A stretch of 64,000 nt of DNA from Bacillota bacterium. GTDB taxonomy: Bacteria; Bacillota; Clostridia; Christensenellales; CAG-138. Below the pieces are notes generated by a model. The model ran no database searches and was not told where the DNA came from. It saw only the letters and a list, made by a program, of their open reading frames with translations. Every line of letters begins with the position of its first letter. Position 1 is the first letter of the stretch. Of this stretch, positions 26,071 to 59,041 are shown one piece after another. The DNA lies in NCBI GenBank assembly GCA_016286445.1, contig JAEESS010000007.1, positions 3,318 to 67,317 on the forward strand, written 5' to 3'. The translations under genes and the position numbers were made by a program.

Positions 26071-27185
26071 CTGCAACCGTTTTTCTGATAGGATTTCTTC
26101 CAAATCCAAGAATATATAAGAGAATTGCATTAGCCCAAAATTACAGTAATGTTCATCTGATATGTTGGGATAGAGGAAAGGAGATGCTGGAAAGCCCAAC
26201 GGGACGCGGCTTTTCATGCAATATCATCAGAATCAATGCAGGTAATGATCCTGTGTCAAGAGTGTTTCCTTTTGAAAAGTTTAAAAAAAAGGCGTTAGAG
26301 ATTCTTACGGAAAAACATCCGGACATAATACATGTTCAAGGGCTAGACATGCTTCAAATTGCCTGTAAGTATAAGTCCATTCACAAGCATGTACATATTA
26401 TTTATGAAATCGCAGACCTTCATAGATTGCTCGTAGATAAACAAACCGGCATATTGAGGGCGTTGGCTCAAAAGTATTTGTTGTGGTTGGACCATAAATG
26501 CAGCAAACAGATTGATTTGCTAATTGTTACTTCTCAACAATACTATACCACGTATTTTTCATCATTCATTCCTAAAGAGAAAGTGATGTTCTTTCCGAAT
26601 ATACCTGATTTATCCGTTTTTGACACTTATCAAAAGAAAGAAAACCACGAACAGTTCACAATTGGTTATTTCGGCGTAATCCGGTATAAAAATGAGATAA
26701 GACTATTGATTAATTCCTTAACGAAACACAATGCGAGATTAATCATTGCAGGTTACGAAGAAAACGGAACGGATATAGAGGAGCTATGCAGAAATCGTTC
26801 AGATATTGAATGGAAAGGCAGATATGATTTCAAGAACAGTGCAGCCTCTTTATATTCACAATGTGATTGTATTTACGCTGTATATGATGCAAGTATGTCA
26901 AATTGCAAAGTAGCATTACCGAATAAACTCTATGAAGCAGTTTATTGCGAATTACCGATTCTGGTTGCAGATCAGACACACGTCGGTGATATTGTACGAA
27001 AGCAGCATGTTGGCATTCCCGTTGCGCATGACTCCCAATCAGCGATAGATTCAGCATTAGCCAGGTTGGAGAACAAAGAAGAGTATGACGGCTTTGTTAG
27101 TGGATGCAAACGATATAAGAAAGAGCTTGATTTAGAGCGTTATAATAATGAATTAGTAAAGAGGATAGAAGCTTTTATATCATAA
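26067..27185 (+). CDS. GT-B fold glycosyltransferase (GT4-like)
   Basis: 372 aa. C-terminal ...ALPNKLYEAVYCELPILVADQTHVGDIV... resembles the GT4 donor-binding segment. Confidence 0.6.
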   Translation: MTATVFLIGFLPNPRIYKRIALAQNYSNVHLICWDRGKEMLESPTGRGFSCNIIRINAGNDPVSRVFPFEKFKKKALEILTEKHPDIIHVQGLDMLQIACKYKSIHKHVHIIYEIADLHRLLVDKQTGILRALAQKYLLWLDHKCSKQIDLLIVTSQQYYTTYFSSFIPKEKVMFFPNIPDLSVFDTYQKKENHEQFTIGYFGVIRYKNEIRLLINSLTKHNARLIIAGYEENGTDIEELCRNRSDIEWKGRYDFKNSAASLYSQCDCIYAVYDASMSNCKVALPNKLYEAVYCELPILVADQTHVGDIVRKQHVGIPVAHDSQSAIDSALARLENKEEYDGFVSGCKRYKKELDLERYNNELVKRIEAFIS

Positions 27186-27212
27186 TTGAAAGGTTCAAGG
27201 GAGAATAAGACT

Positions 27213-28433: not shown

Positions 28434-28467
28434 CGGCAGAACACTACGTAAGAATCTGGGTGAGAAA

Positions 28468-29244
28468 ATGGCAAAAATCAAACAGCTTTTGAGAAAAGTC
28501 AAGAGACTGATACTGAAAAACCGGATCAAAAAACATGAGAAACTATTTGATCGGTTATCATATTGCTTCTTTCCCTGTGAAAAGAGCAAAACGTTGATCG
28601 TCGTATTTTCGGCATTCCCCGGAAAGGACTGTCCGCCGGTCTATAATTATCTAACAACGCTCTCCGGAATCAAAGCCAACAAACTGTTTCTGTTGGACGA
28701 TGTTTGGAATCCGGTCAATGTCGGAAGCTATTACCTCGGAAAGGACGGGGATTGGTATCTTGAACAGGATGTTTTGGACCTTTTACAGAAGATAAAAGCC
28801 GAGCATGCGTATGATAAAGTGATCACCGTCGGCTCCAGCAAGGGCGGCACATCCGCGCTGTATTTCGGAATAAAAACGGAGGCGGATACTTGTATCATCG
28901 GCGCACCGCAGTATCATGTGGGAAGTTATCTGTCATCCGAGCATTCGAGACCGATTTTGAAGGTGATCATGGGCGACAGCAGTCAGTCGTCCATTGATAA
29001 ACTCAACAGCTATATCGTTGATGAAATGCGGAAAGATCATTCGAAAAAATCTACGATCTATATCCATTATTCTCCGAAAGAGCATACGTATAAGGATCAT
29101 ATCAAGGACATGATTGCAGATTTGCATGAAAATGGCTATCAGGTGATCGAAGATAATGCATACGATTATGAACAGCACAGCGATGTCGCTAAGCATTTCC
29201 CTGCTTACCTTGTAAGTACCGTTAAGCGTGAAATACAGGATTGA
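28468..29244 (+). CDS. Alpha/beta-hydrolase-fold protein of unknown role
   Basis: KTLIVVFSAFPG...LFLLDD...ITVGSSKGGTSALYFG (GxSxG elbow). The track ORF 28162 start overlaps wecC and is rejected. Confidence 0.45.
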   Translation: MAKIKQLLRKVKRLILKNRIKKHEKLFDRLSYCFFPCEKSKTLIVVFSAFPGKDCPPVYNYLTTLSGIKANKLFLLDDVWNPVNVGSYYLGKDGDWYLEQDVLDLLQKIKAEHAYDKVITVGSSKGGTSALYFGIKTEADTCIIGAPQYHVGSYLSSEHSRPILKVIMGDSSQSSIDKLNSYIVDEMRKDHSKKSTIYIHYSPKEHTYKDHIKDMIADLHENGYQVIEDNAYDYEQHSDVAKHFPAYLVSTVKREIQD

Positions 29245-29291
29245 ACAAAGGTTGGTATGAACAAACGTTCGGATTATTACAGGAAACACAA

Positions 29292-30476
29292 ATGTTGGAT
29301 CATGTTTTGATTATAAAGTTACAGGCATATAACAGCTTATCATCATCCAATATGCGCATGCTGGCCATGATGAAAGGGCTTAATGAACTGGGGTATAAAA
29401 TGGACTTGCTTTGTACCCCGGTCAGTGCTGTTACGCATATTAATGATATGAGCGACTATGCGTTTCTGAAGGGCGTCAATATCATTACAACTTCACAAAA
29501 CAAGGCGTATGAGAGCTTGGTATCCTCTCCGAAGGGAACAAAAAAGGGACTGAAGCAAAAGCTGCTTCCCGTACTCAGAAAGGTGTATCATAAGTTATCC
29601 CTTTATACAAGCTCATCAACAATAGCAAAGAAGCTGACGTTGGATATTCTTCCGCGAAAAGAATATCAGTATGTCATTTCCGTTTCTGATCCGAAGATTT
29701 CTCAAATTGCGTTAAGAGCGCTGCTAAAGGATGGTTTAAGAAGTGAAAAGGTGATCGAATACTGGGGGGATCCGATGACCGGTGACATTACACAGAGGGC
29801 AATTTATCCGGAGTTTATCATCAAAAGAGAAGAAAGAAAATACCTTAAGATCGCGGACAGAATTGTATACACATCCCCGTTTACTTTGGAGATGGAGCAG
29901 AAAACGCATCCGATGTATGCGGATAAAATGCTTTTTGTTCCGACAGCGAACGCATTCCGAAAGATATACCCGGATACGAAGAACGATTTGTTTACGGTCG
30001 GGTATTACGGCGCTTATCATTCCGGGATCAGGAATATTATGCCGCTTTACAATGCGTTTTCTTCTTTGATAGGGATTGCAAAGCTCAATCTGGTCGGCGA
30101 CTCGGATTTGCAATTACAGCCTACTGAGAATATCATGATCCGCCCGCGGGGAGTTGTAAAGGACTTGGAAGAACAAACCGATTTGTTTGTTTGCGTTTTG
30201 AACAGTTCAGGGACGCAGATCCCCGGAAAGCTCTACCATAATGCAGCAACAAACCGTCCGATCCTTGTCATTCTTGACGGGGAGCGGCAAGATGAAATGC
30301 GAGAGTACTTGGAATCGTTTGATCGGTTTATCCTTTGCGGTAATTCGGAGACGGAAATCGCATCCGCAATCAAATCTGTTATGAACGACAAGAGGGTATG
30401 GGAGCCGTGTAAATTGTTGGAGCCCAAAACAATTGCTGCAAAAATCATCGATTTTGATGGGGAAACAAAGGAATGA
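29292..30476 (+). CDS. Putative GT-B fold glycosyltransferase
   Basis: MLDHVLIIKLQAYNSLSSSNMRMLAMMKGL... and C-terminal ...GTQIPGKLYHNAATNRPILVILDG.... Start uncertain (TTG 29241 or ATG 29292). Confidence 0.45.
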   Translation: MLDHVLIIKLQAYNSLSSSNMRMLAMMKGLNELGYKMDLLCTPVSAVTHINDMSDYAFLKGVNIITTSQNKAYESLVSSPKGTKKGLKQKLLPVLRKVYHKLSLYTSSSTIAKKLTLDILPRKEYQYVISVSDPKISQIALRALLKDGLRSEKVIEYWGDPMTGDITQRAIYPEFIIKREERKYLKIADRIVYTSPFTLEMEQKTHPMYADKMLFVPTANAFRKIYPDTKNDLFTVGYYGAYHSGIRNIMPLYNAFSSLIGIAKLNLVGDSDLQLQPTENIMIRPRGVVKDLEEQTDLFVCVLNSSGTQIPGKLYHNAATNRPILVILDGERQDEMREYLESFDRFILCGNSETEIASAIKSVMNDKRVWEPCKLLEPKTIAAKIIDFDGETKE

Positions 30477-31615
30477 TCAAAAAGCTATGTGTTATTTCGG
30501 CATATTATCCGTCTGAAAACGATCCGCATTATGCGTTTGTCGGAACGTTGATCAGTGCAATCGCCGATCAGGGAATTGAATGTCATGTGATTTCTCCGGT
30601 TTCCAATATGGAGAAACAACACAGAGCGGAATCCAGAATTGAGACAACGCTGAACGGCGCAAAAATCCATGTGTATTGTCCGTCCTATACGGTTTTTCCG
30701 AGTAGAAGGATTTTTGGCTATGAGACATATCGTCTTACCGTTTCATCGAAGCAGCGTGCGATTCGTAAAACCTTTGAAAGGTATATTCATGATTGCGATG
30801 CAATCTATTCCCATTTCATCGACTCCGGGGTGCATGCGGCGCTGTTGTCTGAAAAAACAGGGGTTCCGGCGTTTGTTGCCATCGGTGAGAGCAATCTTAA
30901 CAATAAACAGCTGAACTATTCACTGTATATGAAGGAACTGCAGAGATATATTAAAGGCGTGGTGTCTGTATCTTCTGAGCTAAAGAAAGATGCGCTTGAT
31001 ATCGGCATATTCTCTGCAGAGACGCCGATCGAAGTCTTTCCGAACAGCATCGATACGGATCTTTTCAAGCCGATGGATAAAGCCGAACAGCGAAAGAATC
31101 TGGGGTTATCCGATACGGATTTTGTCGTTTCCTTTGTAGGCGGTTTTATCGAGCGAAAGGGCTTTGATAAGGTACAGCAGATTATCAGACGCCATCCGGA
31201 TTGGAAGTGTATTCTGATCGGAGGCGGGGATATCCCCATAACCGTTCCCAAAGAACAAATTGCTTTCGCCGGAAGGATCAGTCACGACCGGATACCGGCA
31301 TATCTTTGTGCATCCGACGTATTTGTTCTTCCTACAAAGGCGGAAGGCTGCTGCAATGCGATCGTCGAGGCGATGGGGTGCGGGTTGCCGATCGTTTCCT
31401 CCGATAGAGGGTTTAATTACGACATTTTGAATCGCGAGTATGCGATTCTGGTCGATCCGGAGAATATTGACGAAATTGAACAAGCGTTGATGACATATGC
31501 ATCTGATCAGCAGCTCCGAAAGGAACATGCGGACAAAAGCTTGCAGGCGGGCAAGCTCTTGTCGATCGAAAACCGTGCAAACGGAATTGTTCGTTTTATG
31601 GAGAAGAATCTATGA
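30473..31615 (+). CDS. Glycosyltransferase family 4
   Basis: ...FVGGFIERKGFDKV...LPTKAEGCCNAIVEAMGCGLPIVSS... (EX7E region). Confidence 0.85.
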   Translation: MIKKLCVISAYYPSENDPHYAFVGTLISAIADQGIECHVISPVSNMEKQHRAESRIETTLNGAKIHVYCPSYTVFPSRRIFGYETYRLTVSSKQRAIRKTFERYIHDCDAIYSHFIDSGVHAALLSEKTGVPAFVAIGESNLNNKQLNYSLYMKELQRYIKGVVSVSSELKKDALDIGIFSAETPIEVFPNSIDTDLFKPMDKAEQRKNLGLSDTDFVVSFVGGFIERKGFDKVQQIIRRHPDWKCILIGGGDIPITVPKEQIAFAGRISHDRIPAYLCASDVFVLPTKAEGCCNAIVEAMGCGLPIVSSDRGFNYDILNREYAILVDPENIDEIEQALMTYASDQQLRKEHADKSLQAGKLLSIENRANGIVRFMEKNL

Positions 31616-32859
31616 ACCGTTCTCTGGGATTACGGATAAATTGTCAAATACTAAGCAAAGTATTGTTTGCTTTTTATATTGTATATACAAACGTCCTAAG
31701 CTATTCGCTTTTCTTTGTACGAGGATTGTCTTCTGCGTTACTGATCGGCGCAATTGCATTGCAATTGCTGCATGAAAGATTTAGGATCCGTTTGGATAGA
31801 AGCCTGATTGCATTGCTGGTTTTTGCAGCATATTTGTTATTGTCGGGTTTGCTTGTCGCCTATGATTACAGCAAGACATTTAGTACGGTCCTATCATTTT
31901 TGGAGTATTTGGGTGTTTTTTATTTGGTGGTTTATTATATTCAATCTGACAACAAACCGGATTTTCCTATGTATGTTTTTATCATACAAGCGATCGCAGC
32001 AACACTCATCTTGATTCTGAATGGCGTCGGGGTGAAAAGAGTCAGCATTGCTGAAAACGTAAATGTAAATACCATCGGTGTAACACTTACATTTGCGATA
32101 GGGTTTGTTTTATATTTATTGATTGCAAGGAAAAACAGCGCTGTTAAGTGGGGAATCAGCATTACAGCGATTGCAGTTTTGCTTATTGGTGTATTATTGA
32201 CTGTTTCCAAGAAAGCAATTATCGGCGGCGCTGCTTTGATTATACTGTGGACGGTTCTCTGCTATCGTTATACGTTTGCACGAATTAAGTGGTTTTGGAA
32301 ACTCTTTCTTGTTGCTGTACTAGTATTCTCCGGAATACTCATATATAGGTGGTACACTTCAAGATACGCGCTTCAGATGGAAGTGTTTATGTTTCGAATG
32401 AGCGAGACGTATGTTGGTGACAGTGATCAGGAAAGGATAGAATTGTTTAAAGAAGGACTACTGCTTTTCCTTTCTCATCCATTCTTCGGTGTGGGATTTA
32501 ACAATGCAAGATACTATACTTCGTGGAGCACCTACACACATTGTCTGTATAGTGAAATGTTGGCATGTACGGGTATTATTGGGACGCTGATCTTTGGATA
32601 TACGCTCGTCCGACCGTGGGTGATCATCTCAAGGAAACGGGAATCATACAAACGGACAGATCTAATTCTCAATACGCGCACAAAATACTTGTTAGCGATA
32701 TTTGTCGTTTTCTTTGCAATCAGCTTTACAACGATTGCGTTTTATGCACAAAACCTGATGTATATTGTGGCGGTCGTCGCAGGATATGCGATCACAACGC
32801 CGCTTGCGAGAGAGGAAGAAAGGAATGCAGCAGATGAAAAGATTACGCTCGTTTGTTAA
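31612..32859 (+). CDS. wzy: O-antigen polymerase/ligase-like membrane protein (Wzy candidate)
   Basis: 415 aa with 10 or more hydrophobic segments and a larger loop ...RMSETYVGDSDQERIELFKEG.... Lies among GT genes with a separate Wzx. No strict motif exists for Wzy. Confidence 0.65.
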   Translation: MNRSLGLRINCQILSKVLFAFYIVYTNVLSYSLFFVRGLSSALLIGAIALQLLHERFRIRLDRSLIALLVFAAYLLLSGLLVAYDYSKTFSTVLSFLEYLGVFYLVVYYIQSDNKPDFPMYVFIIQAIAATLILILNGVGVKRVSIAENVNVNTIGVTLTFAIGFVLYLLIARKNSAVKWGISITAIAVLLIGVLLTVSKKAIIGGAALIILWTVLCYRYTFARIKWFWKLFLVAVLVFSGILIYRWYTSRYALQMEVFMFRMSETYVGDSDQERIELFKEGLLLFLSHPFFGVGFNNARYYTSWSTYTHCLYSEMLACTGIIGTLIFGYTLVRPWVIISRKRESYKRTDLILNTRTKYLLAIFVVFFAISFTTIAFYAQNLMYIVAVVAGYAITTPLAREEERNAADEKITLVC

Positions 32860-33736
32860 ATATGCTATGAAAAAAGGCTTTTTCAATTGCCTCGGTGATG
32901 AACCGTATCTAAAGCTGTTTTATTGGATCTATATGGGAAAAAGATTGAACCTCAAGAACCCGAAACGGTTTACCGAGAAGCTGCAGTGGTTGAAGATTCA
33001 TGACCGAAAACCGTATTACAGTACGATGGTTGACAAGTATGCGGCAAAAGAGTACGTTGCGGGAATCATTGGGCAGGAGTATATTATCCCGACGTACGGC
33101 GTTTGGGATTCGCCGAGAGACATCGATTTTGATGCACTCCCCGATCAATTCGTCTTGAAGACGACACATGATTCCGGAACGGTCAGAATCATTGATAAAT
33201 CAAAAGGCTTTGATAAAGAAGCTCTGATCGATTATTTCGAAGGGAGACAGAAAAGGAATCTGGGTATTATTGCAAGGGAGTGGCCGTATAAGCAGGTAAA
33301 ACCGCGCATTATTGCGGAACAGTATCTAGAAGGGCCAGAAACGGCATCGGGAGAGCATGACGTCAGAGATTATAAGTTCTTTTGTTTTAATGGAATCGTC
33401 AAGTGTATGAAGGTCGATTACAACAGATTTACCTGTCATCATACAAATTATTACGGTAGGAATAAAGAACGGCTGCCTTTTTGCGAAAGGCGTCTTCCGA
33501 GTGACGACAGTCAAACGATCGAACTACCCGTTCATTTTGATGAAATGGTGTCCCTTGCTGAAATGCTTGCAAAGGATATACCTTTCTTAAGAGCCGATTT
33601 TTATGAGGTCAATGACAAGGTTTATTTCGGGGAACTGACATTTTTCCCGGCTTCCGGAGCAAGCAGTCCCTTTGAACCGGATGAATGGGATTATACGCTT
33701 GGAAGCTGGATCAAGCTTCCGAATGAAGAACAATAA
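32825..33736 (+). CDS. TupA-like ATP-grasp protein
   Basis: NLKNPKRFTEKLQWLKIHDRKPYYSTMVDKYAAKEYV...FVLKTTHDSG...DYKFFCFNG...RADFYEVNDKVYFGELTFFP is the characteristic ATPgrasp_TupA pattern. Confidence 0.7.
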   Translation: MQQMKRLRSFVKYAMKKGFFNCLGDEPYLKLFYWIYMGKRLNLKNPKRFTEKLQWLKIHDRKPYYSTMVDKYAAKEYVAGIIGQEYIIPTYGVWDSPRDIDFDALPDQFVLKTTHDSGTVRIIDKSKGFDKEALIDYFEGRQKRNLGIIAREWPYKQVKPRIIAEQYLEGPETASGEHDVRDYKFFCFNGIVKCMKVDYNRFTCHHTNYYGRNKERLPFCERRLPSDDSQTIELPVHFDEMVSLAEMLAKDIPFLRADFYEVNDKVYFGELTFFPASGASSPFEPDEWDYTLGSWIKLPNEEQ

Positions 33737-33748
33737 GAGGTTTATAGG

Positions 33749-34825
33749 ATGAGAGTAATGTTGCATGGAGCGGTGAATATGAGTAACTATGGAGATTACA
33801 TATTTGCCGAGTTATTCTATCAATCACTTTTGAATAATGGGGTACAAGTAGAGTTTTATACGCATCCCAAGTATGGTATAAGCAGTTATTTTCAGAAGCA
33901 TCTCGATTATAAGCCTGAAACGCGAAATTACAAAAAGCTATTACATCAATGTGATGCCTTTATTTTTTTCTCGGGCGGATATATCGCTGAACCAAGAAAA
34001 AAAGGCTTTTTGGCAGAAACACGTCATATTCATCGGTATTTGTATCCGGCTTCTTTGTTTATGAAAGCAGGAAAGCCGATTTATGTTATGGGTGTTGGAG
34101 CTGGACCGTTTGATGAAAATGCTGCATTCAGTAAAAGAGCCAGAGAGATTCTTAATTATGCGACAGTTATTACAGTCCGGAATGAAGAGTCACTGCAGTA
34201 TTGTAAAGAGTTCGGGATAAATAACGATATTCAGGTAACGGCCGATACCGCCTTGGTGATCAAAGAGTTTCTGGATCGGGAAAAACAGGATGTACCGAGA
34301 TTTGAAACAGAAAACGGAAAGAAGATGCTTCTGTTCCATATCGACAGCAATGCGGAAGTGACGGCAAAATTGAAGGAGATCGTTGTTCCGGCAACGATAC
34401 GCTTTTTGAAAGCGCACCCCGATTATCAGCTGTATCTGGCTGCTGACGGGATAAAGCGTGATTCGCACTATCAGGAATATGAAACGATATTTGCGGGATG
34501 CGATCCGATTACTTTGAAATATGATGATCCGTGGAAATTGACGCGACAGATTGAGCGCGCGGATCTGATCATCACGACAAAGCTGCATGTCGGCATCGTT
34601 GGCTCTGCGCTGGGCAGATCGGTCGTTTCGTTCCCGTTCGTTCCCAATAAAACATTACGTTTTTATAAGCAAATCGGCGAAGCAGACAGATGCGTCCCGC
34701 TGAAAGAAATCACAACGGAAAAAGCTTATCAAATGCTTGAAGCATATAAGGATCGGATGGTTACTGTGCCGCAGGAATTGATCGATAAGGCCAAGCTGAA
34801 TTTGGAGTTGCTTCCCAAAGAATAG
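33749..34825 (+). CDS. Polysaccharide pyruvyl transferase
   Basis: MRVMLHGAVNMSNYGDYIFAELF...FFSGGYI...ITTKLHVGIVGSALGRSVV (PS_pyruv_trans-like). Confidence 0.7.
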   Translation: MRVMLHGAVNMSNYGDYIFAELFYQSLLNNGVQVEFYTHPKYGISSYFQKHLDYKPETRNYKKLLHQCDAFIFFSGGYIAEPRKKGFLAETRHIHRYLYPASLFMKAGKPIYVMGVGAGPFDENAAFSKRAREILNYATVITVRNEESLQYCKEFGINNDIQVTADTALVIKEFLDREKQDVPRFETENGKKMLLFHIDSNAEVTAKLKEIVVPATIRFLKAHPDYQLYLAADGIKRDSHYQEYETIFAGCDPITLKYDDPWKLTRQIERADLIITTKLHVGIVGSALGRSVVSFPFVPNKTLRFYKQIGEADRCVPLKEITTEKAYQMLEAYKDRMVTVPQELIDKAKLNLELLPKE

Positions 34826-34847
34826 TTGATCAAAGGTCGCTATTGAA

Positions 34848-36383
34848 ATGAGAAAAAAGAAAGCACTTATAAATACGATTTTTTCGATGCTGTTGGAAGT
34901 GATCACGGTTGTTGCCGGGTTTATCCTTCCCAGATTGTTCATCGGAACGTTTGGATCGGAAGTCAACGGGTTGGTGTCTTCGATAACAAGTTTTATCGGT
35001 TACATCACGCTTCTTCAATCCGGCGTCGGAACGGTCGCCAAGGCTGCCATGTACAAGCCTCTGGCAAAGAAGGATCATGACAAGCTTTGCGTTATCGCAA
35101 AAACCGTAGAATCCTTTTTCCGGAAGATCGCATTTATTACCATCGCATATATAGCCGTTCTCGCAGGCCTGTTTCCGACGCTGATCGCGCCGGACACGGG
35201 ATCGTTTTTGTATACGGCTTCATTGGTGGTGATCATAGGCGTTAGCACCGCAGCGCAGTATTTCTTTGGCATTACGCACCAAATGCTGCTGGAGGCGGAT
35301 CAAAACTCCTATGTCTATTCAATCCTGCAGATTGCGACAGTCATCGTCAACACGGCGGTGTCCGTAGTTTTGATCAAAGCCGGTTGCTCGGTTCAGATCG
35401 TGAAACTGGGCAGTGCTGCTATCTTTGTATTGCGTCCGCTGCTGCTCAGCATCTACACCAAGAGGAAATATAAGCTTTACGGCAAATATGAGGTTGATAA
35501 TTCGCTGATCAAGCAACGCTGGGACGGCTTTGCGCAGGCGATAGCATATTTCATTCATTCAAAGACCGATATTTTTGTGCTGACGCTGTTTGCCAGATTC
35601 AGCCCAAATGTTTCATTGAGCCTGGTTTCCGTTTACAGCGTTTATCACTTGGTCACGACCGGTTTGACGTCATTTATCCGTGCGATTGAACGAGCAGTTA
35701 CGTCGGCACTCGGCAATATCATTGCATTGGGCGAGCGAGATACCCTTGTCAAGACATTTCAGGCATATAACAATTTCATGCATATTCTGTGTACGACGGT
35801 GTTTGCGACCGCAAGCATAACGGTGTTCAAGTTTGTCGGTATCTATGTCAAAAACATTACCGATGTGGAATATGTGCAATATGCATTCGGTTATATCATT
35901 ATTGCAGCCGAATATCTGTTTTGTTTGCGGTTACCGTACACCAGCCTCATCAATGCGGCAGGAAAGTTCAAAGAGACAAGAACCTCGGCAATCGTAGAAG
36001 CAGTCTCGAACATTGCTGTTTCTGTGATACTGGTATCGAGATTCGGGTTGATCGGCGTAGCGATCGGCACGTTTGTTGCTATGGCATATCGAACGGTTTC
36101 CTTTATGATCTTTTTGCATAAAGACGTTATCTGCTTGAGTATCGGCACACAGATCAAGAGGTATTTGCTTTCTTTTGTGATCTACGGGGCTTTGGTTTAT
36201 GCAGCTTCACTGATCAATATTCAAATCACACACTATGTGTCATGGATTCTTTATGCGGGAATTACGTTTGCGGCGACCGGCGCGGTTACATTACTGGTCA
36301 ATCTCCTTATCATGCGAAAAGAAACTGTTGCCGTAATCAAAACGTTCATCAGACGTCTGCCCAAAAAACGGGCGGATTCTTGA
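34848..36383 (+). CDS. wzx: MOP-superfamily oligosaccharide flippase (Wzx)
   Basis: 511 aa with about 12-14 TM segments. N-terminus MRKKKALINTIFSMLLEVITVVAGFILPRLFIGTFGSEVNGL is typical of polysaccharide-biosynthesis flippases. Confidence 0.75.
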   Translation: MRKKKALINTIFSMLLEVITVVAGFILPRLFIGTFGSEVNGLVSSITSFIGYITLLQSGVGTVAKAAMYKPLAKKDHDKLCVIAKTVESFFRKIAFITIAYIAVLAGLFPTLIAPDTGSFLYTASLVVIIGVSTAAQYFFGITHQMLLEADQNSYVYSILQIATVIVNTAVSVVLIKAGCSVQIVKLGSAAIFVLRPLLLSIYTKRKYKLYGKYEVDNSLIKQRWDGFAQAIAYFIHSKTDIFVLTLFARFSPNVSLSLVSVYSVYHLVTTGLTSFIRAIERAVTSALGNIIALGERDTLVKTFQAYNNFMHILCTTVFATASITVFKFVGIYVKNITDVEYVQYAFGYIIIAAEYLFCLRLPYTSLINAAGKFKETRTSAIVEAVSNIAVSVILVSRFGLIGVAIGTFVAMAYRTVSFMIFLHKDVICLSIGTQIKRYLLSFVIYGALVYAASLINIQITHYVSWILYAGITFAATGAVTLLVNLLIMRKETVAVIKTFIRRLPKKRADS

Positions 36384-50057: not shown

Positions 50058-50189
50058 ATCCGTCACCGCCTTTTTTCCATTTTACCAGCTTTTCCCGCGT
50101 TTGAAAAGCCCCCGCCGCACACGAATCCCGTCGAAAACGGCTTCTTGCCGCAAAGAAAAAAGCCTCGCGGGGAGGCTTTTTGCTCTCGG

Positions 50190-52412
50190 TTATTTCACCT
50201 TGGCGGAAAGCACGTTCGACCAGTCGCCGAAGTACGTCATACCCTCGAACACCTGATACGAGCGTACCGTCACATAATAGGTCGTGCCGGATTTCAGGTT
50301 TTTGATCACGTTCTGATACTGATCCGGACGCGTGATCTTGATCGCGGTGACGTTCTTGGTAAAGCTCCGGTCCGTTGCGTACTTGATCTGATAGCCGGTA
50401 AAGACCTTGGAGCCGGACCATTTGACGGTCAGCTGCTTCGATCCGGGCGTAACGGCGTTCAGCTTGCGCGTTGTGATGCGTACGGTCGTTTTCAACGGTC
50501 CGACAAGCCCGAGGTTGAAGTTGTCCATCGGATCCTCGAAATACGCCTTGACGCCGTACTGATAGCGCGTTCCGGCATAAACGGTCGTGTCGATCCACGA
50601 CGCGGCAGTCGTGTTGTTCCAGCGTTCAAACGTCGTCCAGCCCGCGCTTGCAAGGTTCCATGCGCGGCGATAGATGACATAGCCCCTTGCACCGGAGACC
50701 GGTTCCCAACTCAGTCGAATGCCATTGTCAACGTTCTGCACGGCGGTCGTGTTCGTTGCGGGCAGATAGATCTTGAACCAAAGCGTCAGCATTCGATCCG
50801 TCCCCTTGAACGCGACAGTCGCCTTTGCTGTGCCGGGGGTCGTATTGTTTGTATAGCGCACGGTATAGTATGCGGGATCGATCTCACTGCCGGACGGATC
50901 CGTTACGACGACGGAGGGCTTCTGGGCAAAACCGTTCGCGACGACGTACGCCGTCGTGCCCTTATACTGCACGGCGCCGTCCCGGAACGAGGCAAAGGCA
51001 TCGCCGGTATATGCGGGAACGAGGGAGACGTCCACCTGCATCGAACCCTTGCCGGTGTCGTACAGATAGGTGAAGGAATCGACCGCTTCCTGTGCTGTCA
51101 CGACGCCGGTCGCGGGATCGTAGGAGAGCGCCGCGTCGGAAACCGAGACGCGGGACGGATCCGAAACAAGCGCATGCATGTCGAACGTGTACGCACCGCC
51201 GTCCGCCGCAAACCCGCCGACGGCGGTCACCGTCTGCGTGCCGGGTTGGCAGTTCTTCAGCGTCCCGTATCTGCCGAGATCCAGTTCAGACAAACAGTTT
51301 CCGCCGCACCAAAGCAGATACAGCTTTGATGCGGGGTCAAGGATCAGTTCGGACAGGCGATTGTTCGGGCAGTAGATGTTCTCGATCTTCGGACAGGCGG
51401 AAAGATCGAGAACCGACAGCCTTCCGACGATCTCCAGAATGTTCAGGTTCGGGCAGGCGGAAAGATCGAGCGCATCCAGATCGGTGGAAACAAGCATCAG
51501 ATCGGTCAGCGCGGGCTTGCTGCCGAGCTTCAGCGTGTGCAGCTTCACGTCGTCGTACATGTTGTCGTTCTCATAAAGGATCCGGATCAGCTTCTCGCAG
51601 TTGGAAAGATCGAGTGCCCCGACCGGGCAGCTGTCCAGATGCAGCGATTGAAGCTTTGTGCATTTGGTCAGATCGAGCGCGGTGATCGGCACGTCCATCA
51701 GACCAACACTGCGCAGGTATGTGCAATTCGTAACGTCCAGCGCTGCAACGGGACAAGACATGAGAAAGAGCGATTTCAAAAGCCTGCAGTTTGTAAGATC
51801 GAGCTCCGTGATCGGCGCATCGGTCAGATCCAATGTATGCAGATCGGTGTTTTCGGAAACGTTCAGCGCTTCGATCGGAACGCTATACAGGAGCAGATCG
51901 GTAAGCTTTTTGTTGTGCGAAAGATCCAGCGTGCGCAGCGAGGCGTTTTCGATGCTGAGGTAAGTCAGCTCCGCAAGCTGAGAAAGATCGATCGACGCCG
52001 TGTCACAATTCTGAAGCGTCAGCTTGAGAAGCTTTGTGTTTGCCGAAAGATTCAGACGGGTCACGATCGTATCGGTGTGAAGGGCCAGCACCGTCAGCTC
52101 CGTAAAGTGTTCAAGCCCGGTAAAATCGGATACGCTTGCGTCGATCTCCATCTCCCTGACGGAAAGGACCCGGTCCCTTGTCAGATACCAGACACGGTCG
52201 TCAAAGTCGGCTTCATCGTCGGGATCGCATTGTCCGTAGTGTTCCCGAATGAACAGACGGAACTGCTCATCCGGGAACGTCCGTTCGTTGATCTCAAGAT
52301 AGTGCGCATCGCGCGGCGTTTCGATTTCGGCGCCTTCCTCCGCGATCGCGGCAGGCGCAAGCGCAAAGAGCATCAGCAATGCCAGCATCAGTGCAAGACA
52401 TCGTTTCATCAT
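50190..52412 (-). CDS. Secreted protein with leucine-rich repeats followed by Ig/FN3-like domains
   Basis: Signal peptide MMKRCLALMLALLMLFALAPAAIA. About 22-aa LRR units (LDLSHNKKLTDLLL..., LDLTNCRLLKSLFL..., LDLTKCTKLQSLHL...). C-terminal FN3-like segments (GIRLSWEPVSGARGYVIYRR, LTVKWSGSKVFTGYQIKY). Paralogous to the ectodomain of 52539..54779. Confidence 0.75.
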   Translation of the reverse strand: MMKRCLALMLALLMLFALAPAAIAEEGAEIETPRDAHYLEINERTFPDEQFRLFIREHYGQCDPDDEADFDDRVWYLTRDRVLSVREMEIDASVSDFTGLEHFTELTVLALHTDTIVTRLNLSANTKLLKLTLQNCDTASIDLSQLAELTYLSIENASLRTLDLSHNKKLTDLLLYSVPIEALNVSENTDLHTLDLTDAPITELDLTNCRLLKSLFLMSCPVAALDVTNCTYLRSVGLMDVPITALDLTKCTKLQSLHLDSCPVGALDLSNCEKLIRILYENDNMYDDVKLHTLKLGSKPALTDLMLVSTDLDALDLSACPNLNILEIVGRLSVLDLSACPKIENIYCPNNRLSELILDPASKLYLLWCGGNCLSELDLGRYGTLKNCQPGTQTVTAVGGFAADGGAYTFDMHALVSDPSRVSVSDAALSYDPATGVVTAQEAVDSFTYLYDTGKGSMQVDVSLVPAYTGDAFASFRDGAVQYKGTTAYVVANGFAQKPSVVVTDPSGSEIDPAYYTVRYTNNTTPGTAKATVAFKGTDRMLTLWFKIYLPATNTTAVQNVDNGIRLSWEPVSGARGYVIYRRAWNLASAGWTTFERWNNTTAASWIDTTVYAGTRYQYGVKAYFEDPMDNFNLGLVGPLKTTVRITTRKLNAVTPGSKQLTVKWSGSKVFTGYQIKYATDRSFTKNVTAIKITRPDQYQNVIKNLKSGTTYYVTVRSYQVFEGMTYFGDWSNVLSAKVK

Positions 52413-52432
52413 TTCGTAATACCTCCGTTTTC

Positions 52433-52462
52433 AGTATAAATCGCATCAAATCTTCGTGTCAA
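52433..52462 (-). promoter_or_regulatory. Sigma-A-like promoter (TTGACA-18-TATACT, minus strand) upstream of the secreted LRR protein
   Basis: Minus-strand TTGACA (plus 52457-52462) and TATACT (plus 52433-52438). Preceded by an 11-bp perfect hairpin at 52475-52515 (GCAAAGCCGCA / TGCGGCTTTGC). Confidence 0.4.
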
Positions 52463-52538
52463 TCGGGCCGGCGGGCAAAGCCGCACATGGTACGGGGTGT
52501 GAAATGCGGCTTTGCGCCGTTCCGTCCCGAAACCTCGG

Positions 52539-54779
52539 TCATTCGATCGTACAGCTTCGGATGTTCGACCACGGACTGTGGACCGTATTTCCGAAGCGGT
52601 TGTAGATCACGCGGACACGGACGTAATACCGCGTGCCTGCAGTCAGTCGATCGATCGTACCTTCCTGTACGGCGAGATAGAAGAACTCACCGGAATGCAC
52701 GTCCTCGGCAAAGCCCGGGTCGCTTGAGACCTGCATCTCGTATGCGTCTGCGCCGTCAATGCCGGACCATACCGCCGTGACCTCGTCTGCCTCTCCGGAG
52801 ACCGAAAGCAGCGTCGGCGGCTGAATGTACAGGACGTCGTTTGAATACGAGCTTTCGCCGGCGGCGTCGGGATTGCCGCCGAGACATGCCTTTACGATAT
52901 ACCGGTATTGCATGAACGACGAGACGCCGCCGTCCGACCAGCCTGCCTCCGCTGTTCTTCCGAGCAGCGCGGGATCGCTCCATTCGCCGCGCGTGACGGG
53001 CTTTTCGATGCGGTACACCAGATAGCTCTCTGCGCCGCTGATCGCCGTCCATGAGACACGCACGCCGCCGGACGACGCGGACGCGCTCAGACCGGAGACC
53101 TGCGGTGCGATGATCCGGAACGTGGCGACCGCGAAGATGTCCGAATTGTGCATGGTGACGTTCACAAACGCCGTGCCGAGGTTTACGTTGTTCGAGTAGG
53201 TGACGTCGTACAGCTTCGGATTGAGGATCACGCCGTTCTGGTCGAGTACGCGGATCGGCGGCTGCTTCGCATTGCCGTTGTAGATCATGTACGGCGTGCT
53301 GCCGTCAAAGCGCACAAAGGTGTCGCCGGGCTTGAATGCGGTTTCAAACTCGATCCGGATGCTTCTGACGGGCGGAGGTGTTTTGCTTGGCGTCTGCGGG
53401 GCGGCGGTTGCGGAAACGTTCGGTTCCGGAAGCGTAACCTCTACCTCAAAGACCGAGCTGCCGGTATGGTAACGGTAAACGAATGTTTTGAACGCGGTAT
53501 CGGTGCGAAGGATGCCGGTTGCAGGGTCGTAGCGCATGCCTTCGCCCGCGAACGACACGCGTGAGGGATCGTCGACCAGCAGATGCAGATCGAAGTACCA
53601 ACCCTGCGTGTCCTGCTTAAACGGCGCGGATGCGCGAACCGACTGCTTTCCGCCGTCGATCGCCGCTTCCGACGCGCCGACGGTGAGCTCACGCAGATGA
53701 TTTCCGGAAACGGAAACGGACCGAAGCGCTGTGTTGGCGGACAGATCGAGCGACTGCAGGTTGTTTCCGTCGACGGAAAGCTGTTCGAGGTTCGGACAGC
53801 CCGTGACGTCCAGCGTTTCGAGCGCGTTGTCGGAAAGCGTCAGCGTATGAAGCGCCGGAAGCGTTCCGAGCTCCAATTCGCAGAGCGCACCGCCGGAAAC
53901 GGTCAGCGAACCGAGTTTTTCGTTTGCGCTGACGTCCAGCGTTTCCAAACCGCCCTCAACAACAACGGCAACCAGGTCCGTATTTGCGGAAAGATCAAGT
54001 GCCTGTACAGACGGAAGCGCAAGGTCGAGCGAGATGAGCGCGGTCAGCCCGGAAAGCGACGCGGCTTCGACCGATCCGTCGGCATGCCACGACAGCGAGG
54101 TGAGTGCAGGGAACTGCTCGAGCCCGCGAAGATCGCGCACGCTGTCCGGCAGTTCGAGCGAGCAAACGCTGCGCGTCTGCGCTTCGGTCAGATAGTATCC
54201 GTATTCGTCCTGTTCGGCGCCTGCCGTGTCGATCAGGTATGCGCGCAGGGCTTCGTCCGGAATGCTCTCGGCGTCGAGAGACAGATACCGGTCGGACGGA
54301 ACCGGATCCGTCGGCGCGGGGGACGTTGCCGGGACGACGGTCGCCGCGGGCTCGGGCGTTTTTTCATCAACGGGCGCTTCGATCGAAGGAGATTCCGGAG
54401 CAGCGCCGGGACGGAAGAGATCGCCCAAAAGCCCTCTGCCGAACGGCGTGAGTGCAAAGAACCCGACGATCAGCAGCACGGCGGCAGCGGGGATCAGACG
54501 CGGCGCATACGCACGGAAGCTTTCGCCGACGCTTGAAAGTTGCAGCTTCAGCCTGCGGGTCCTTTTACGGCGCGGCGGCTCCCGCATCAGCCGTTCGATG
54601 GTTTCGGTAAGCTCCGGCGGCCAGTCCGCGCGCGCGGAAGCGCGGTTCAGGATCGCTTCGACCGACGGACAGACGTGCCGTTCGGCAAGCGCCGCCGCCT
54701 CGTCCTCTCCGATGGAAAAGGCGTCGTTCAAAAGATACGGTTTTTTGCGGAGCAGTTTTTTCAGTTTGCGATTGGTCAT
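52539..54779 (-). CDS. Single-pass membrane protein, candidate anti-sigma factor with LRR + FN3 ectodomain
   Basis: Start overlaps the sigma-factor stop (ATGA). About 110-aa cytoplasmic N-terminus, TM LIPAAAVLLIVGFFALTPF, Pro-rich spacer, LRRs (LDLSANTDLVAVVV, LDVSANEKLGSLTV, LDVTGCPNLEQLSV, LDLSANTALRSVSV) and FN3-like repeats (VRVSWTAISGAESYLVYR, VTAVWSGIDGADAYEMQV). Confidence 0.7.
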   Translation of the reverse strand: MTNRKLKKLLRKKPYLLNDAFSIGEDEAAALAERHVCPSVEAILNRASARADWPPELTETIERLMREPPRRKRTRRLKLQLSSVGESFRAYAPRLIPAAAVLLIVGFFALTPFGRGLLGDLFRPGAAPESPSIEAPVDEKTPEPAATVVPATSPAPTDPVPSDRYLSLDAESIPDEALRAYLIDTAGAEQDEYGYYLTEAQTRSVCSLELPDSVRDLRGLEQFPALTSLSWHADGSVEAASLSGLTALISLDLALPSVQALDLSANTDLVAVVVEGGLETLDVSANEKLGSLTVSGGALCELELGTLPALHTLTLSDNALETLDVTGCPNLEQLSVDGNNLQSLDLSANTALRSVSVSGNHLRELTVGASEAAIDGGKQSVRASAPFKQDTQGWYFDLHLLVDDPSRVSFAGEGMRYDPATGILRTDTAFKTFVYRYHTGSSVFEVEVTLPEPNVSATAAPQTPSKTPPPVRSIRIEFETAFKPGDTFVRFDGSTPYMIYNGNAKQPPIRVLDQNGVILNPKLYDVTYSNNVNLGTAFVNVTMHNSDIFAVATFRIIAPQVSGLSASASSGGVRVSWTAISGAESYLVYRIEKPVTRGEWSDPALLGRTAEAGWSDGGVSSFMQYRYIVKACLGGNPDAAGESSYSNDVLYIQPPTLLSVSGEADEVTAVWSGIDGADAYEMQVSSDPGFAEDVHSGEFFYLAVQEGTIDRLTAGTRYYVRVRVIYNRFGNTVHSPWSNIRSCTIE

Positions 54780-55309
54780 GATAGAGTCCTCCCGATCAAG
54801 AATACCAGCAGTAAGGTTTGATACAGCTTTGACTTGTTCTTCTTGATGTGAGCCCGCATTCGCTTGAATCGCTGTGCAACCGTGTTCACGCTGACGCCGA
54901 GCGCCGCGGCGATCTCCCTCTGCGAGTAGCCGTCCAGATAGAAGGCTTCAAACGCCTCGATCCATTCGGGCGGCGCGTCGGAGAGCATCTCGCGCAAAAG
55001 CGCGCGCGCCCGCTTGTCCTCGTATGCGGCGTCGCGCGGTTCGCCGTTCGCGGCAAGCTGCGGCGCAAGCTCCTTGAACCGGCGATCCCTACGCACCTCG
55101 CTGCAGTACGCGTGCCGCATGCAGGTCTTGAGATACGCGATCGGCTCGTGAACGGTCTCCGGGATCTTCCCGGAATAGATCAACAGCGCAAGATCGGCGA
55201 CAAGATCGCTTGCGGCTTCGTGGTCACCTGTGAGCATCAGCGCATAGCGATACAGCTTATTGCGGTTCGCATCATTCAGATAGACCGTTAACAACTCTTC
55301 AATTTGCAT
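54776..55309 (-). CDS. ECF-type sigma-70 family RNA polymerase sigma factor
   Basis: Region 2-like ...LYRYALMLTGDHEAASDLVADLAL... and region 4 HTH YLDGYSQREIAAALGVSVNTVAQRFKRMR; 177 aa. Confidence 0.85.
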   Translation of the reverse strand: MQIEELLTVYLNDANRNKLYRYALMLTGDHEAASDLVADLALLIYSGKIPETVHEPIAYLKTCMRHAYCSEVRRDRRFKELAPQLAANGEPRDAAYEDKRARALLREMLSDAPPEWIEAFEAFYLDGYSQREIAAALGVSVNTVAQRFKRMRAHIKKNKSKLYQTLLLVFLIGRTLS

Positions 55310-55443
55310 ACCACACCCCGCATATACCGATTGGCAAGATTGTATAACAGCTGTACGGCAGAGACAAGCCCTGCCTTTTGTACATCTCCGTAACTAAGAC
55401 GTATGATCCGGGCGGATTCTGTCACGCGTTTTTCTTTTTTTAT

Positions 55444-55468
55444 AAAAAAAACGACGCCGGGCGGCGCC
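55444..55468 (-). terminator. Intrinsic terminator (minus strand)
   Basis: Minus strand reads GGCGCC-GCCC-GGCGTC followed by TTTTTTTT. Confidence 0.6.
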
Positions 55469-55482
55469 GAAGGAGAATCCTG

Positions 55483-57299: not shown

Positions 57300-58844
57300 T
57301 TACGCCCGTTTGACCAGCGTCAGGATGTTCTGTCCGTTGCGGTATTCATAGTGAACGTCGTCCATCAGCTTCTTGGTCAAGAACACCCCGAGCCCGCCGA
57401 TGGCGCGTTCGTCCGCGGAAAGGGTCACGTCCGGATCCTGCTTTTTCAGCGGATCATACGGTACGCCGCGGTCGATGAACGTGATCGTAACGCCGTCGGG
57501 ATCGACCGCGATCCGCACGGTTGCTTTGCCCTTTTCGGGCGCGTAGGCATAGCTTGCGATGTTGATGAAGATCTCCTCCGCGGCAAGCCCGATCTGCATC
57601 CGGGATCTCGGCGGGAACTGGATTTTCGCAAGCTGTTCTTCCAGAAAGCTCTGCACCTCGGCAAGATTCTCCGCGGAGGCTTCGATGGTCAGCTCTTCCC
57701 GGGAGAAGGTCAGCGTGTCGACGGTTTCAAGCAGCTCGATCAGCTCGCGGGTCCAGAGCGCGTTTTCCGTTCGTCCCTGCTCGGTTTTGATCTCCCCGCG
57801 GCGGATCCCGCGGCGGATGAGCCGTGTATACCCGATAATGCGGGCTTTGTTTTCAACCTCGCGGATCTTTGTTTCGGAGGTTGTGCCGAGATAGGAGGCA
57901 AGCGTTTCATGCCAGAATCGCTTTGCCGTTTCAAAATCATAGCCCTGGAACCGCTTGATGATTTCGTGATCCACCTCGGAGAAGCCGACGAACGCGTTGT
58001 ACATGCTGCCGAGCTCAAAGATCGGATATCCCATGGCAAGCGTATCCATGTCGATCAGAAGGACCTCGTCGTTCTGAAGCTCTAAATTCTTGGTGTGATA
58101 GTCGCCGTGGATCAGGTGGTTGTCGCGCGGGACCGCCTCGATCAGCGCAAGAAGCTTCTTTTCGGATTCCTCCGGCAGGGTATCCTGCAGGAATCGCGCC
58201 CACGAAAGCGCGGTCTGCTTCATGTCCGTGAGCTTTCCTTCCGGCGCTTCGGTGCCGTGGATTTTCAGAAGCATTTCCGAAAACTCCTTTACGCACCAGT
58301 CGAACTTCTCCGGCTGCGTCGAAAGGATCTTTGCAAACGAGCGCGCGTTCAGAAGCTCAAAGACCGAGCCGTAGCTATTGCCGACCTTTACGACGTCATA
58401 GGAGATCGCGGTGGGGATGCCGAGGATCAGCGCAAGCTTTGCCATCTCGCGCTCATTCTGAATGTCTCCGAGCGCGTCGGCATTCCGGTAGACCTTTACC
58501 ACATTGTCGCTGTCGATGCGGTACAGCGAACCGTTTGAACCGTGGCCGATCTCCTCGCAGCCCTCGATGGAAACGACGCGGTACGCTTTTTCCACCGTCA
58601 GGATCTCCGTGAAGCCGGTCATGTCCAGGATTTCATAGACCTCGGAACTGACGTTAATGATCCGCATATCGGGATGCGTTTTGCGGATCCGCAGCAGGAC
58701 GCGAAGCCCTGCGGAGGAAATGTATTCGAGATGCTCCGCATCCAGCACGACCGGTTCGCCGTCAGCGGTAAGCTTCTCAAGCATCCGCGCTTCCGCCGCG
58801 GCGGCGTTCTGGGAATCGATTCGTCCGTTCAACGTAATTATCAT
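57300..58844 (-). CDS. Tri-domain protein: STAS, APH/protein-kinase-like phosphotransferase, GHKL (RsbW/SpoIIAB-like) ATPase
   Basis: STAS: MIITLNGRIDSQNAAAAE...LEYISSAGLRVLLRI...VYEILDMTGFTEIL. PKL: IGHGSNGSLYRI...VVKVY...LIHGDYHTKNL...LLIDMDTL. GHKL: ...LAAEEIFINIASYAY...DRGVPYDP...GGLGVFLTKKLMD.... Start at 58844 behind AAGGAG. Confidence 0.8.
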   Translation of the reverse strand: MIITLNGRIDSQNAAAAEARMLEKLTADGEPVVLDAEHLEYISSAGLRVLLRIRKTHPDMRIINVSSEVYEILDMTGFTEILTVEKAYRVVSIEGCEEIGHGSNGSLYRIDSDNVVKVYRNADALGDIQNEREMAKLALILGIPTAISYDVVKVGNSYGSVFELLNARSFAKILSTQPEKFDWCVKEFSEMLLKIHGTEAPEGKLTDMKQTALSWARFLQDTLPEESEKKLLALIEAVPRDNHLIHGDYHTKNLELQNDEVLLIDMDTLAMGYPIFELGSMYNAFVGFSEVDHEIIKRFQGYDFETAKRFWHETLASYLGTTSETKIREVENKARIIGYTRLIRRGIRRGEIKTEQGRTENALWTRELIELLETVDTLTFSREELTIEASAENLAEVQSFLEEQLAKIQFPPRSRMQIGLAAEEIFINIASYAYAPEKGKATVRIAVDPDGVTITFIDRGVPYDPLKKQDPDVTLSADERAIGGLGVFLTKKLMDDVHYEYRNGQNILTLVKRA

Positions 58845-59041
58845 TTCGGTGGTCTCCTTCTCCTGAATCATATAAGATACTGTATTATAACATATCTTTT
58901 CGCTAAAAGCATGAACTATTTCAAGAAATATCAAAATAACTTCTTGAAAAGCGCCGCTCCAGCGTGTACAATACAATCAATCGGGATAACGTACGGTGCG
59001 TGATCGCCTGTCAACGCTTGGCGGGCGGGAAAGGATTATAC

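Follow-up and report, generated by a model that had tools for sequence, protein, structure and literature searches.

A leucine-rich-repeat ectodomain on a candidate anti-sigma factor, and its secreted paralog, in a three-gene module of uncultured Clostridia

Pairs of extracytoplasmic function (ECF) sigma factors and anti-sigma factors constitute a major bacterial route of transmembrane signalling, the signals of most of which are unknown, and diversity among the ectodomains of anti-sigma factors is expected. The leucine-rich repeat (LRR), for its part, is the fold classically used by receptors of eukaryotic innate immunity, and it is also that of the Listeria invasion proteins. A locus in a 64,000-nucleotide (nt) stretch of a Bacillota bacterium genome (Clostridia; Christensenellales; CAG-138; assembly GCA_016286445.1, contig JAEESS010000007.1), hereafter the window, raises the question of whether these two have been joined, i.e., whether an LRR receptor could serve as the sensor of an anti-sigma factor. 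Three co-directional open reading frames (ORFs) on the minus strand code for an ECF sigma factor of 177 amino acids (aa; 54776-55309), a single-pass membrane protein of 746 aa (52539-54779) and a secreted protein of 740 aa (50190-52412), with the ATG of the second overlapping the TGA of the first (ATGA; 54776-54779). This layout, together with the overlap, had been described in an earlier note on this DNA, and the ORF list and the translations reproduce it. The reading developed here, to which we assign a probability of roughly 60% as a whole, is that the three genes form a signalling module, in which the membrane protein would be the anti-sigma of the neighbouring sigma, its LRR ectodomain the receptor, and the secreted protein, a paralog of that ectodomain, part of the output.

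The product of the first gene contains the two domains that define the ECF (group IV) sigma factors, sigma2 and sigma4, and no others (Sigma70_r2 with a score of 25.9 against a cutoff of 24; Sigma70_r4_2 with 39.5 against 25.7). It also exceeds the cutoff of the superfamily model TIGR02937 (59.2 bits against 42.9, E=3.7e-16) and its size lies within the range of ~170-200 aa, all of which bears out the ECF assignment made previously. In a PDB profile search the nearest solved structures are SigL, SigE and SigH of M. tuberculosis (E ~5e-8), and all the NCBIfam subfamily models score far under their cutoffs. The orthologs of this sigma are 77-80% identical. Beyond region 4, residues ~159-177 (54779-54835, minus strand) form a short, conserved hydrophobic C-terminal tail, KLYQTLLLVFLIGRTLS; this is an unusual feature in an ECF sigma, shared by the distant relatives at loci L006, L007, L008 and L010, and a contact of the tail with the membrane or the anti-sigma is conceivable.

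Inspection of the 746-aa protein reveals one hydrophobic segment (Kyte-Doolittle 19-residue maximum of 2.31, from residue 95), and the bias of lysine and arginine around it, amounting to 11 over the preceding 35 residues against 2 over the following 43, points to an N-in/C-out topology, in agreement with the single-pass arrangement claimed earlier. This segment separates a cytoplasmic N-terminal domain (residues 1-94; 54498-54779, minus strand) from an extracellular linker (residues 118-160; 54300-54428, minus strand), 56% of which is proline, alanine, serine or threonine. The transmembrane helix itself (residues ~95-117; 54429-54497, minus strand) ends in a family-wide FFxLxPxGR motif. In the AlphaFold2 (AF2) model of residues 1-120, which has a predicted local distance difference test score (pLDDT) of 77, the cytoplasmic domain consists of four short helices (3-12, 25-35, 40-48 and 55-66), and the transmembrane segment is part of a long helix spanning residues 70-110. 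Among eight orthologs with the LRR architecture the mean pairwise identity is 64% for the cytoplasmic domain and 39% for the linker, and it reaches 79% for the transmembrane helix, the best-conserved segment of the protein.

The N-terminal part of this protein belongs to a wider family. A phmmer search with residues 1-120 against 1.84 billion representative proteins, on which the survey of the family rests, returned 31 matches, all of them aligned over residues 1-117 and sharing the signature MTxRKLKKLLxxxPYLxDD...FFxLxPxGR. Only one of these (P0003) is of the LRR type, the rest being short proteins of 240-305 aa or fragments. A search of a collection of 5.8 billion proteins with an N-terminal profile found only two fragments, probably an effect of the word-index prefilter. 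In each of the six inspected loci of the short type (L006, L007, L008, L010, L011 and L012) the family gene follows directly upon a sigma gene, with the sigma stop and the start of the family gene overlapping or adjacent; the sigmas of these loci are 176-185 aa long and 35-45% identical to that of the window. Likewise, the gene of the 746-aa type stands directly after the sigma in all 6 orthologous loci containing a sigma gene. The 746-aa protein, single-pass, N-in/C-out and encoded beside a sigma, thus has the general layout of a membrane anti-sigma, and the gene arrangement, overlapping as here or adjacent, recurs in 12 loci. A cytoplasmic and transmembrane core that travels with its own sigma while tolerating exchange of the ectodomain is the pattern of a sigma-binding anti-sigma module. 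On account of this context, the 746-aa protein is likely the anti-sigma of the neighbouring sigma, and its N-terminal residues probably define an unnamed family of cytoplasmic domains that bind ECF sigmas.

The extracellular part of the protein begins with an internalin-like module (residues 161-450; 53430-54299, minus strand), which matches LRR_4, LRR_EndoS and, partially, the NCBIfam model InlJ and is modelled by AF2 with a pLDDT of ~90-96. Over residues 160-746 the AF2 model, built from 26 sequences, has a pLDDT of 89.3 and shows in succession a helical cap, ~8 LRRs of ~21 residues each, an Ig-like domain, a short disordered linker and three beta-sandwich domains. The latter (residues 473-746; 52542-53363, minus strand) resemble tandem Ig/FN3 proteins in Foldseek searches; the last two are FN3 domains, with weak matches to the Pfam fn3 model, and the first we take to be of the MBG type, which Pfam does not confirm. 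Foldseek aligns the first half of the ectodomain with the internalin domain of InlB at a TM-score (normalised to the target) of 0.60-0.66 over ~315 columns, and also matches InlJ. The N-terminal cap, the LRR array and the Ig-like inter-repeat domain fused to it, as found in internalins, are hence all present, and the earlier description of an ectodomain of LRRs followed by Ig/FN3 domains is upheld by the domain matches and by the structural models. This fold is common to residues 161-450 and Listeria InlB/InlJ at an identity of only ~15%, and the NCBIfam model internalin_J gives 33.9 and 47.8 bits for the two LRR proteins of the window against a cutoff of 1700. Further, in contrast to the internalins with their LPXTG or GW anchors, neither of the two proteins has an LPXTG motif or a GW module at its C-terminus: the sensor is anchored by the N-terminal transmembrane helix, the paralog is unanchored, and the module is coupled to a sigma.

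The third gene (50190-52412, minus strand) codes for a protein of the same general layout: a classical signal peptide (MMKRCLALMLALLMLFALAPAAIA/EE), a cap, ~13 LRRs, an Ig-like domain, a beta-sandwich and two FN3 domains, with no LPXTG, SLH, GW or dockerin module and no cell-wall anchor motif. In BLASTP comparisons it aligns with the ectodomain of the membrane protein at 30% identity over 524 aa (E=1e-59), and the cap region of the LRRs at 33% over 206 aa, the Ig-like and beta-sandwich domains being the most similar parts of the two proteins. The homology of the two ectodomains and their shared LRR-Ig-FN3 layout, both noted earlier, are therefore far beyond chance. Orthologs of the paralog are 64-97% identical.

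In having a sensor that is homologous to a secreted protein the module resembles the SigI/RsgI systems of Clostridium thermocellum, another member of the Clostridia, in which the ectodomain of the anti-sigma is homologous to secreted modules (PMC10328401, PMC6852018, PMC4711584). The parallel drawn by the earlier note holds as an analogy of logic and does not extend to the components. The sigma is of the ECF type (sigma2 and Sigma70_r4_2) rather than of the SigI type; Pfam finds no RsgI_N in the 746-aa protein; and in place of an autoproteolytic SEAL-type domain there is a juxtamembrane linker of 43 aa of low complexity, which leaves no space for a folded domain, and the AF2 ectodomain model begins with the LRR cap. 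Additionally, the sensor is an LRR domain and not a CBM, PA14 or GH domain, and the protein that it mirrors is one adjacent paralog and not a dispersed regulon.

The candidate regulatory elements of the locus comprise two promoters and a structured intergenic region. Upstream of the sigma gene lies a motif of the form TGACA-N18-CGTCTTA(G), i.e., TGACA-N18-CGTCTTAG (55395-55424, minus strand), and CGTC-type -10 elements are typical of ECF promoters. A motif TGACA-N18-CGTC[T/A]TAG is kept in the window and in L001, L002, L004 and L009 (the last in the form TGACA-N18-CGTCATAG), while L005 has one mismatch (TGTCTTA) and the distant L006 has a similar motif upstream of its sigma, CAACA-N18-CGTCATTAG; L007, L008 and L010-L012 showed no conserved equivalent. 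We infer from this conservation that the motif could be a promoter autoregulated by the sigma. Ahead of the paralog, the sigma-A-like promoter recognised previously at 52433-52462 (minus strand; TTGACA-18-TATACT) is indeed present with 11 of 12 consensus matches, its TTG and -10 element are kept in 6/7 loci and absent in L092, and a canonical GGAGG ribosome-binding site stands directly upstream of the gene.

Between this promoter and the end of the 746-aa gene is a stem-loop (52463-52530, minus strand) of 20 interrupted pairs with the loop core CACACCCC at 52494-52501. The 11-bp hairpin at 52475-52515 that had been reported at this position exists as its inner stem; the true extent is larger. 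Among the non-coding features of the locus the stem-loop is the best conserved, the 126-nt intergenic region having a mean identity of 88% over five loci as against ~60-70% for the flanking proteins. It occurs in seven loci, L009 and L092 among them, with a minimum free energy of -39 to -44 kcal/mol; across these loci 98.6% of the alignment cells are paired and 15 pairs are invariant. One compensatory change (A-U to G-C) and four one-sided changes, all to G-U wobbles that fit the sense-strand RNA only, support formation of an RNA structure by this element, which is too conserved for covariation statistics. A search of the module against Rfam gave no family match. In a metagenome scan the 16-mer TTTCGGGACGGAACGG from the element yielded at least 119 matches, nearly all of them due to chance, and among the newly fetched contigs only that of L092 has the full element. 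In 6/7 loci the stem is followed by no U-tract, the exception being L092 with four consecutive T immediately behind it; the stem is hence probably not an efficient terminator, and read-through is likely. The case of L092, in which the stem-loop is retained and the sigma-A-like promoter is missing, argues for read-through into the paralog, at least in that lineage. A GGAAC within the conserved GGGACGGAACGG was considered as an ECF -35 element of the paralog and rejected as the main reading, since it is part of the 5' strand of the stem and differs from the sigma's own conserved upstream motif.

The distribution of the module points to a unit with a narrow range. Among 5.8 billion protein clusters the full anti-sigma-LRR architecture is found in only eight, P0001-P0008, which are 59-100% identical, and every other relative of the ectodomain with an inspected N-terminus starts with a signal peptide instead of the anti-sigma N-terminus. 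Wider secreted LRR-Ig-FN3 relatives of the paralog (P0178-P0185; 34-44% identity) likewise all have signal peptides. The intact three-gene module occurs in L001 (GCA_018396355.1), L002/L003, L004, L005 and L009 ("uncultured Clostridia bacterium"). A gene for an SRAP peptidase, the next gene beyond the 740-aa ORF in the window, is also downstream of the module in L001 and L009 and upstream of it in L002, L004 and L005; judging from these gene orders, either SRAP or the three-gene module has moved as a block, and the position of SRAP on either side of an intact module indicates that the latter behaves as a unit. The edges of the unit are marked by terminator-like hairpins: upstream, at 55452-55469 (minus strand), a 7-bp stem with 6 GC pairs (TTTTTTTT) and a T-run at the end of a carbon-nitrogen hydrolase gene (CN_hydrolase match), and downstream, at 50152-50181 (minus strand), the hairpin AGCCTC-CCCGC-GAGGCT, read from the sequence and followed by TTTTTCTTT. 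With hairpins at both ends and unrelated housekeeping neighbours, the three genes form a bounded unit. A search of the window turned up no second sigma, N-terminal domain or paralog of these kinds, nor a copy of the small secreted protein that accompanies short-type pairs (see below). A scan of 185,579 species representatives with the sigma profile recovered four loci, assigned to Clostridia, Christensenellales and Oscillospiraceae; either sigmas of this family are uncommon or the genome scan used peptide patterns that are too strict. The module is restricted to a narrow clade of uncultured Clostridia.

As to origin, the LRR ectodomain likely arose when a copy of a member of the secreted family was fused to the N-terminal and transmembrane core of a pre-existing sigma/anti-sigma pair, in place of the small domain of ~160 aa that such pairs usually have as their ectodomain. 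A separate association is seen in L014, where a 721-aa fusion (3786-5951, plus strand) of an ECF sigma (~1-190), a transmembrane segment (~265-287) and a large non-LRR ectodomain stands directly upstream of the gene for P0185, a secreted LRR-FN3 protein 40% identical to the paralog of the window. This ECF-type regulator is an unrelated one, and the adjacency suggests that a regulatory tie between ECF sigmas and the secreted LRR-FN3 family recurs. In several loci of the short type a small secreted protein of 124-135 aa is encoded convergently beyond the pair (L010, 8511-8906; L012, 8411-8785; L011, ~3884-4300; L007, 4872-5246; all minus strand), and those of L010 and L012 are homologous (29% identity, E=3e-14). 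A mirroring of sensor and secreted protein throughout the family was considered and ruled out, the short-type ectodomain and the small secreted neighbour being not homologous (E=3).

Established here are the structure of the genes, the domains that they encode, the paralogy, the family context and the conservation of non-coding elements; the functions of the module are inferred from sequence and gene context. The sigma would be made together with the 746-aa protein by translational coupling through the ATGA overlap and held at the membrane, where the 94-residue cytoplasmic domain, helical by prediction, would sequester it. Outside, the internalin-like cap-LRR-Ig region on its stalk of three beta-sandwiches would act as a receptor, kept off the membrane by the flexible Pro/Ala-rich linker, and its ligand would be an extracellular macromolecule, probably a protein or glycan on the surface of the host, a food particle or a microbe. 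Both halves of this idea have precedents: RsiV is the direct receptor of a protein ligand, lysozyme (PMC4183432), and the sensor modules of RsgI anti-sigmas mirror secreted modules (PMC10328401, PMC6852018). Binding of the ligand would open the anti-sigma to proteolysis or change its conformation and thereby free the sigma, with regulated proteolysis, as in RsiV and RsgI, being the most plausible route. The free sigma would then transcribe its own operon from TGACA-N18-CGTCTTAG, and read-through past the stem-loop would lift the secreted paralog above a basal level driven by sigma-A. Sigma binding, ligand sensing, proteolytic release and membership of the paralog in the regulon are all proposals of this scheme, and the co-expression of the paralog by read-through is possible.

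The observations that weigh against this scheme bear on the N-terminal domain and on the paralog. Searches of residues 1-120 against Pfam and NCBIfam gave no N-terminal match in this protein or in 26 relatives, with only faint traces of DUF4179 (E=0.2) in two of the 27 family members and a weak DUF4367 match in the ectodomain of one of the short type. A 25-sequence N-terminal profile run against the sequences of the PDB returned only G-protein-coupled receptors and transmembrane noise and no solved anti-sigma; the AF2 model of this region has low global confidence (pTM 0.32); and Foldseek comparison of that model with the PDB gave only two meaningless matches (E>4). The fold and profile comparisons with anti-sigma domains proposed in the earlier note therefore came out negative. 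As that note had also observed, a zinc-binding motif is missing: HxxxCxxC is absent from residues 1-94, which have a single histidine and a single cysteine (H35, C37), and no histidine or cysteine is invariant in the family alignment. By sequence, then, the cytoplasmic domain is not a recognisable ASD/ZAS member, and of the anti-sigma candidacy put forward at the outset the topology, gene position, overlap and family context stand, whereas similarity to a known anti-sigma domain is lacking. One could accordingly regard the 746-aa protein as a membrane-anchored, internalin-like adhesin or scaffold, its gene being co-transcribed with that of the sigma and no more than a target of it; control of the sigma would then be exerted in some other way, for instance through its conserved hydrophobic C-terminal extension or by transcription alone. 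Such a role would fit the want of any homology or fold match in residues 1-94, but it leaves unexplained the fact that the N-terminal 117 residues are conserved apart from the ectodomain, being joined to a small, different ectodomain in ~28 other representative clusters, and that the family gene follows its cognate sigma in every inspected locus; moreover, the constraint on the cytoplasmic domain relative to the linker is expected of a sigma-binding domain and not of a simple anchor. We therefore consider an adhesin or scaffold improbable. The closest likeness of an anti-sigma role is with the Firmicute pairs sigmaW-RsiW and sigmaV-RsiV, which act through regulated intramembrane proteolysis and in which, as here, the sigma gene comes first and is coupled to a gene for an N-in/C-out single-pass protein; a cytoplasmic domain of ~90 aa that is predicted to be helical, an alanine-rich transmembrane helix and a candidate autoregulated promoter with a CGTC-type -10 element extend the resemblance. 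Unlike known anti-sigma domains, the domain matches no ASD, ZAS, DUF4179 or RskA, and unlike these pairs the module has an ectodomain of LRRs and three beta-sandwiches and a sigma with a hydrophobic tail.

The inclusion of the paralog is open to a different objection, namely that a true sigma/anti-sigma pair is present, with the paralog being independent of it and the adjacency only recording the duplication that donated the ectodomain. The ECF-type motif found upstream of 55309, ahead of the sigma, occurs in a single copy in the window and has no counterpart upstream of 52412, and that the paralog has an ECF promoter of its own, used by the sigma, is thus not borne out. The paralog instead has, in 6/7 loci, its sigma-A-like TTG...N18...TATACT and its GGAGG, and the strong stem-loop separates it from the 746-aa gene; further, three of its four wider relatives have no sigma nearby and thus stand alone. 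The LRR arrays also differ, in having ~8 and ~13 repeats and in being only ~30% identical, and hence need not share a ligand. These points are countered by the retention of the module linkage and of the intergenic sequence in seven loci despite rearranged flanks, by the missing U-tract with the read-through that it makes likely, by L092, where hairpin and paralog are kept in the absence of the sigma-A-like promoter, and by the independent adjacency of ECF and LRR-FN3 genes in L014. An unconnected paralog is in our view possible, if on the unlikely side. It is also conceivable that the module is self-referential, with the ectodomain binding the paralog secreted from the same module, by way of homotypic contacts between LRR or FN3 domains rather than an external ligand, and the sigma reporting exported or unbound paralog. 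The paralogy and strict co-inheritance of sensor and paralog, and the particular likeness of their Ig-like and beta-sandwich domains, would be in keeping with this; on the other hand, an identity of 30% speaks for an ancient duplication and diverged proteins, and the mirroring is not family-wide, as the unrelated small secreted neighbours of the short-type ectodomains indicate. Such self-sensing is accordingly quite doubtful, and a receptor for a surface macromolecule, with the paralog raised by read-through, is the reading retained here.

A further potential layer of control concerns the initiation region of the sigma gene. Its Shine-Dalgarno region, GGGGTGTG (55312-55319, minus strand), is invariant in six loci, and the loop core of the intercistronic element, CACACCCC (52494-52501, minus strand), is its exact reverse complement; these two are the sole occurrences of the 8-mer on either strand of the window. 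By manual count of base pairs the complementarity extends over 8-12 bp in each of the six loci, in all of which both elements are invariant. When the initiation region of the sigma was paired with the intergenic RNA by RNAduplex, the core of loop and Shine-Dalgarno region was the best duplex in 5/6 loci, but the duplex energy lay beyond all 300 dinucleotide shuffles only in L001, and the energy test is not convincing by itself. A comparable arrangement is known from the icaR mRNA of Staphylococcus aureus, in which a C-rich motif of the 3'-UTR pairs with the Shine-Dalgarno region of the same mRNA (PMC3868564). Here, too, a C-rich and exposed sequence beyond the coding region, CACACCCC, is complementary to the ribosome-binding site, GGGGTGTG, near the start of what would be one and the same transcript; in contrast to icaR, the C-rich element is the loop of a 20-pair stem located between genes, ~2.8 kb from the ribosome-binding site, and the pairing is predicted. 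The pairing may represent 3'-to-5' mRNA feedback of the icaR type and is offered as a lead rather than a finding. In the putative 5' leader of the sigma a hairpin GGCAG...CTGCC (55357-55375, minus strand) was seen by eye, the arms of which differ and yet still pair in L002/L004 (GGCG.../...CGCC) and L009 (GCGGG...CCCGC).

What is new in this locus is the type of sensor and the unnamed cytoplasmic domain coupled to a sigma; the ECF sigma/anti-sigma module as such is known. Full-text literature searches found no description of an LRR-bearing anti-sigma, and the main text of the 2021 ECF re-classification makes no mention of LRR or fibronectin, such that the earlier statement that LRR sensors on anti-sigmas are not a described class holds within the literature searched. 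If true, the assignment would make this the first LRR-type anti-sigma. Provided that the sensor works as proposed, it would also offer a tractable case in which a gut anaerobe, on recognising a ligand at a surface, expresses a secreted binding protein related to the sensor. The unnamed family, which probably binds ECF sigmas, could enter the catalogues of anti-sigma domains, and it presents sensor modules swapped onto a fixed sigma-binding and transmembrane core. The near-invariant stem-loop, moreover, offers a candidate case of mRNA feedback from 3' to 5' in Clostridia that lends itself to testing. In its fullest form the picture would be that of an LRR receptor wired to transcription, a prokaryotic counterpart of LRR-receptor signalling logic, in which an anti-sigma of a new type senses a host or microbial surface macromolecule or its own paralog, the ECF sigma raises the paralog, and the stem-loop masks the ribosome-binding site of the sigma; this combination is on the unlikely side and is advanced tentatively.

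Several observations concern the surroundings of the module and of its relatives. In L006 and L008 genes of 139-142 aa with no assigned function stand directly upstream of the sigma (2992-3420 and 753-1172, respectively; both plus strand), as does a 133-aa gene at the same position on a contig of GCA_016648615.1; the module of the window has no such extra gene. Two genes upstream of that module (57300-58976, minus strand) is a gene for a 558-aa fusion of STAS, an APH-type phosphotransferase and an RsbW-like HATPase_c_2 domain, an unusual fusion of the partner-switching type, which is not kept beside the module in L001 or L002. Elsewhere in the window, at ~22000-36000, the G+C content falls from ~0.54-0.62 to 0.41-0.46 across ~14 kb, which suggests a horizontally acquired island.

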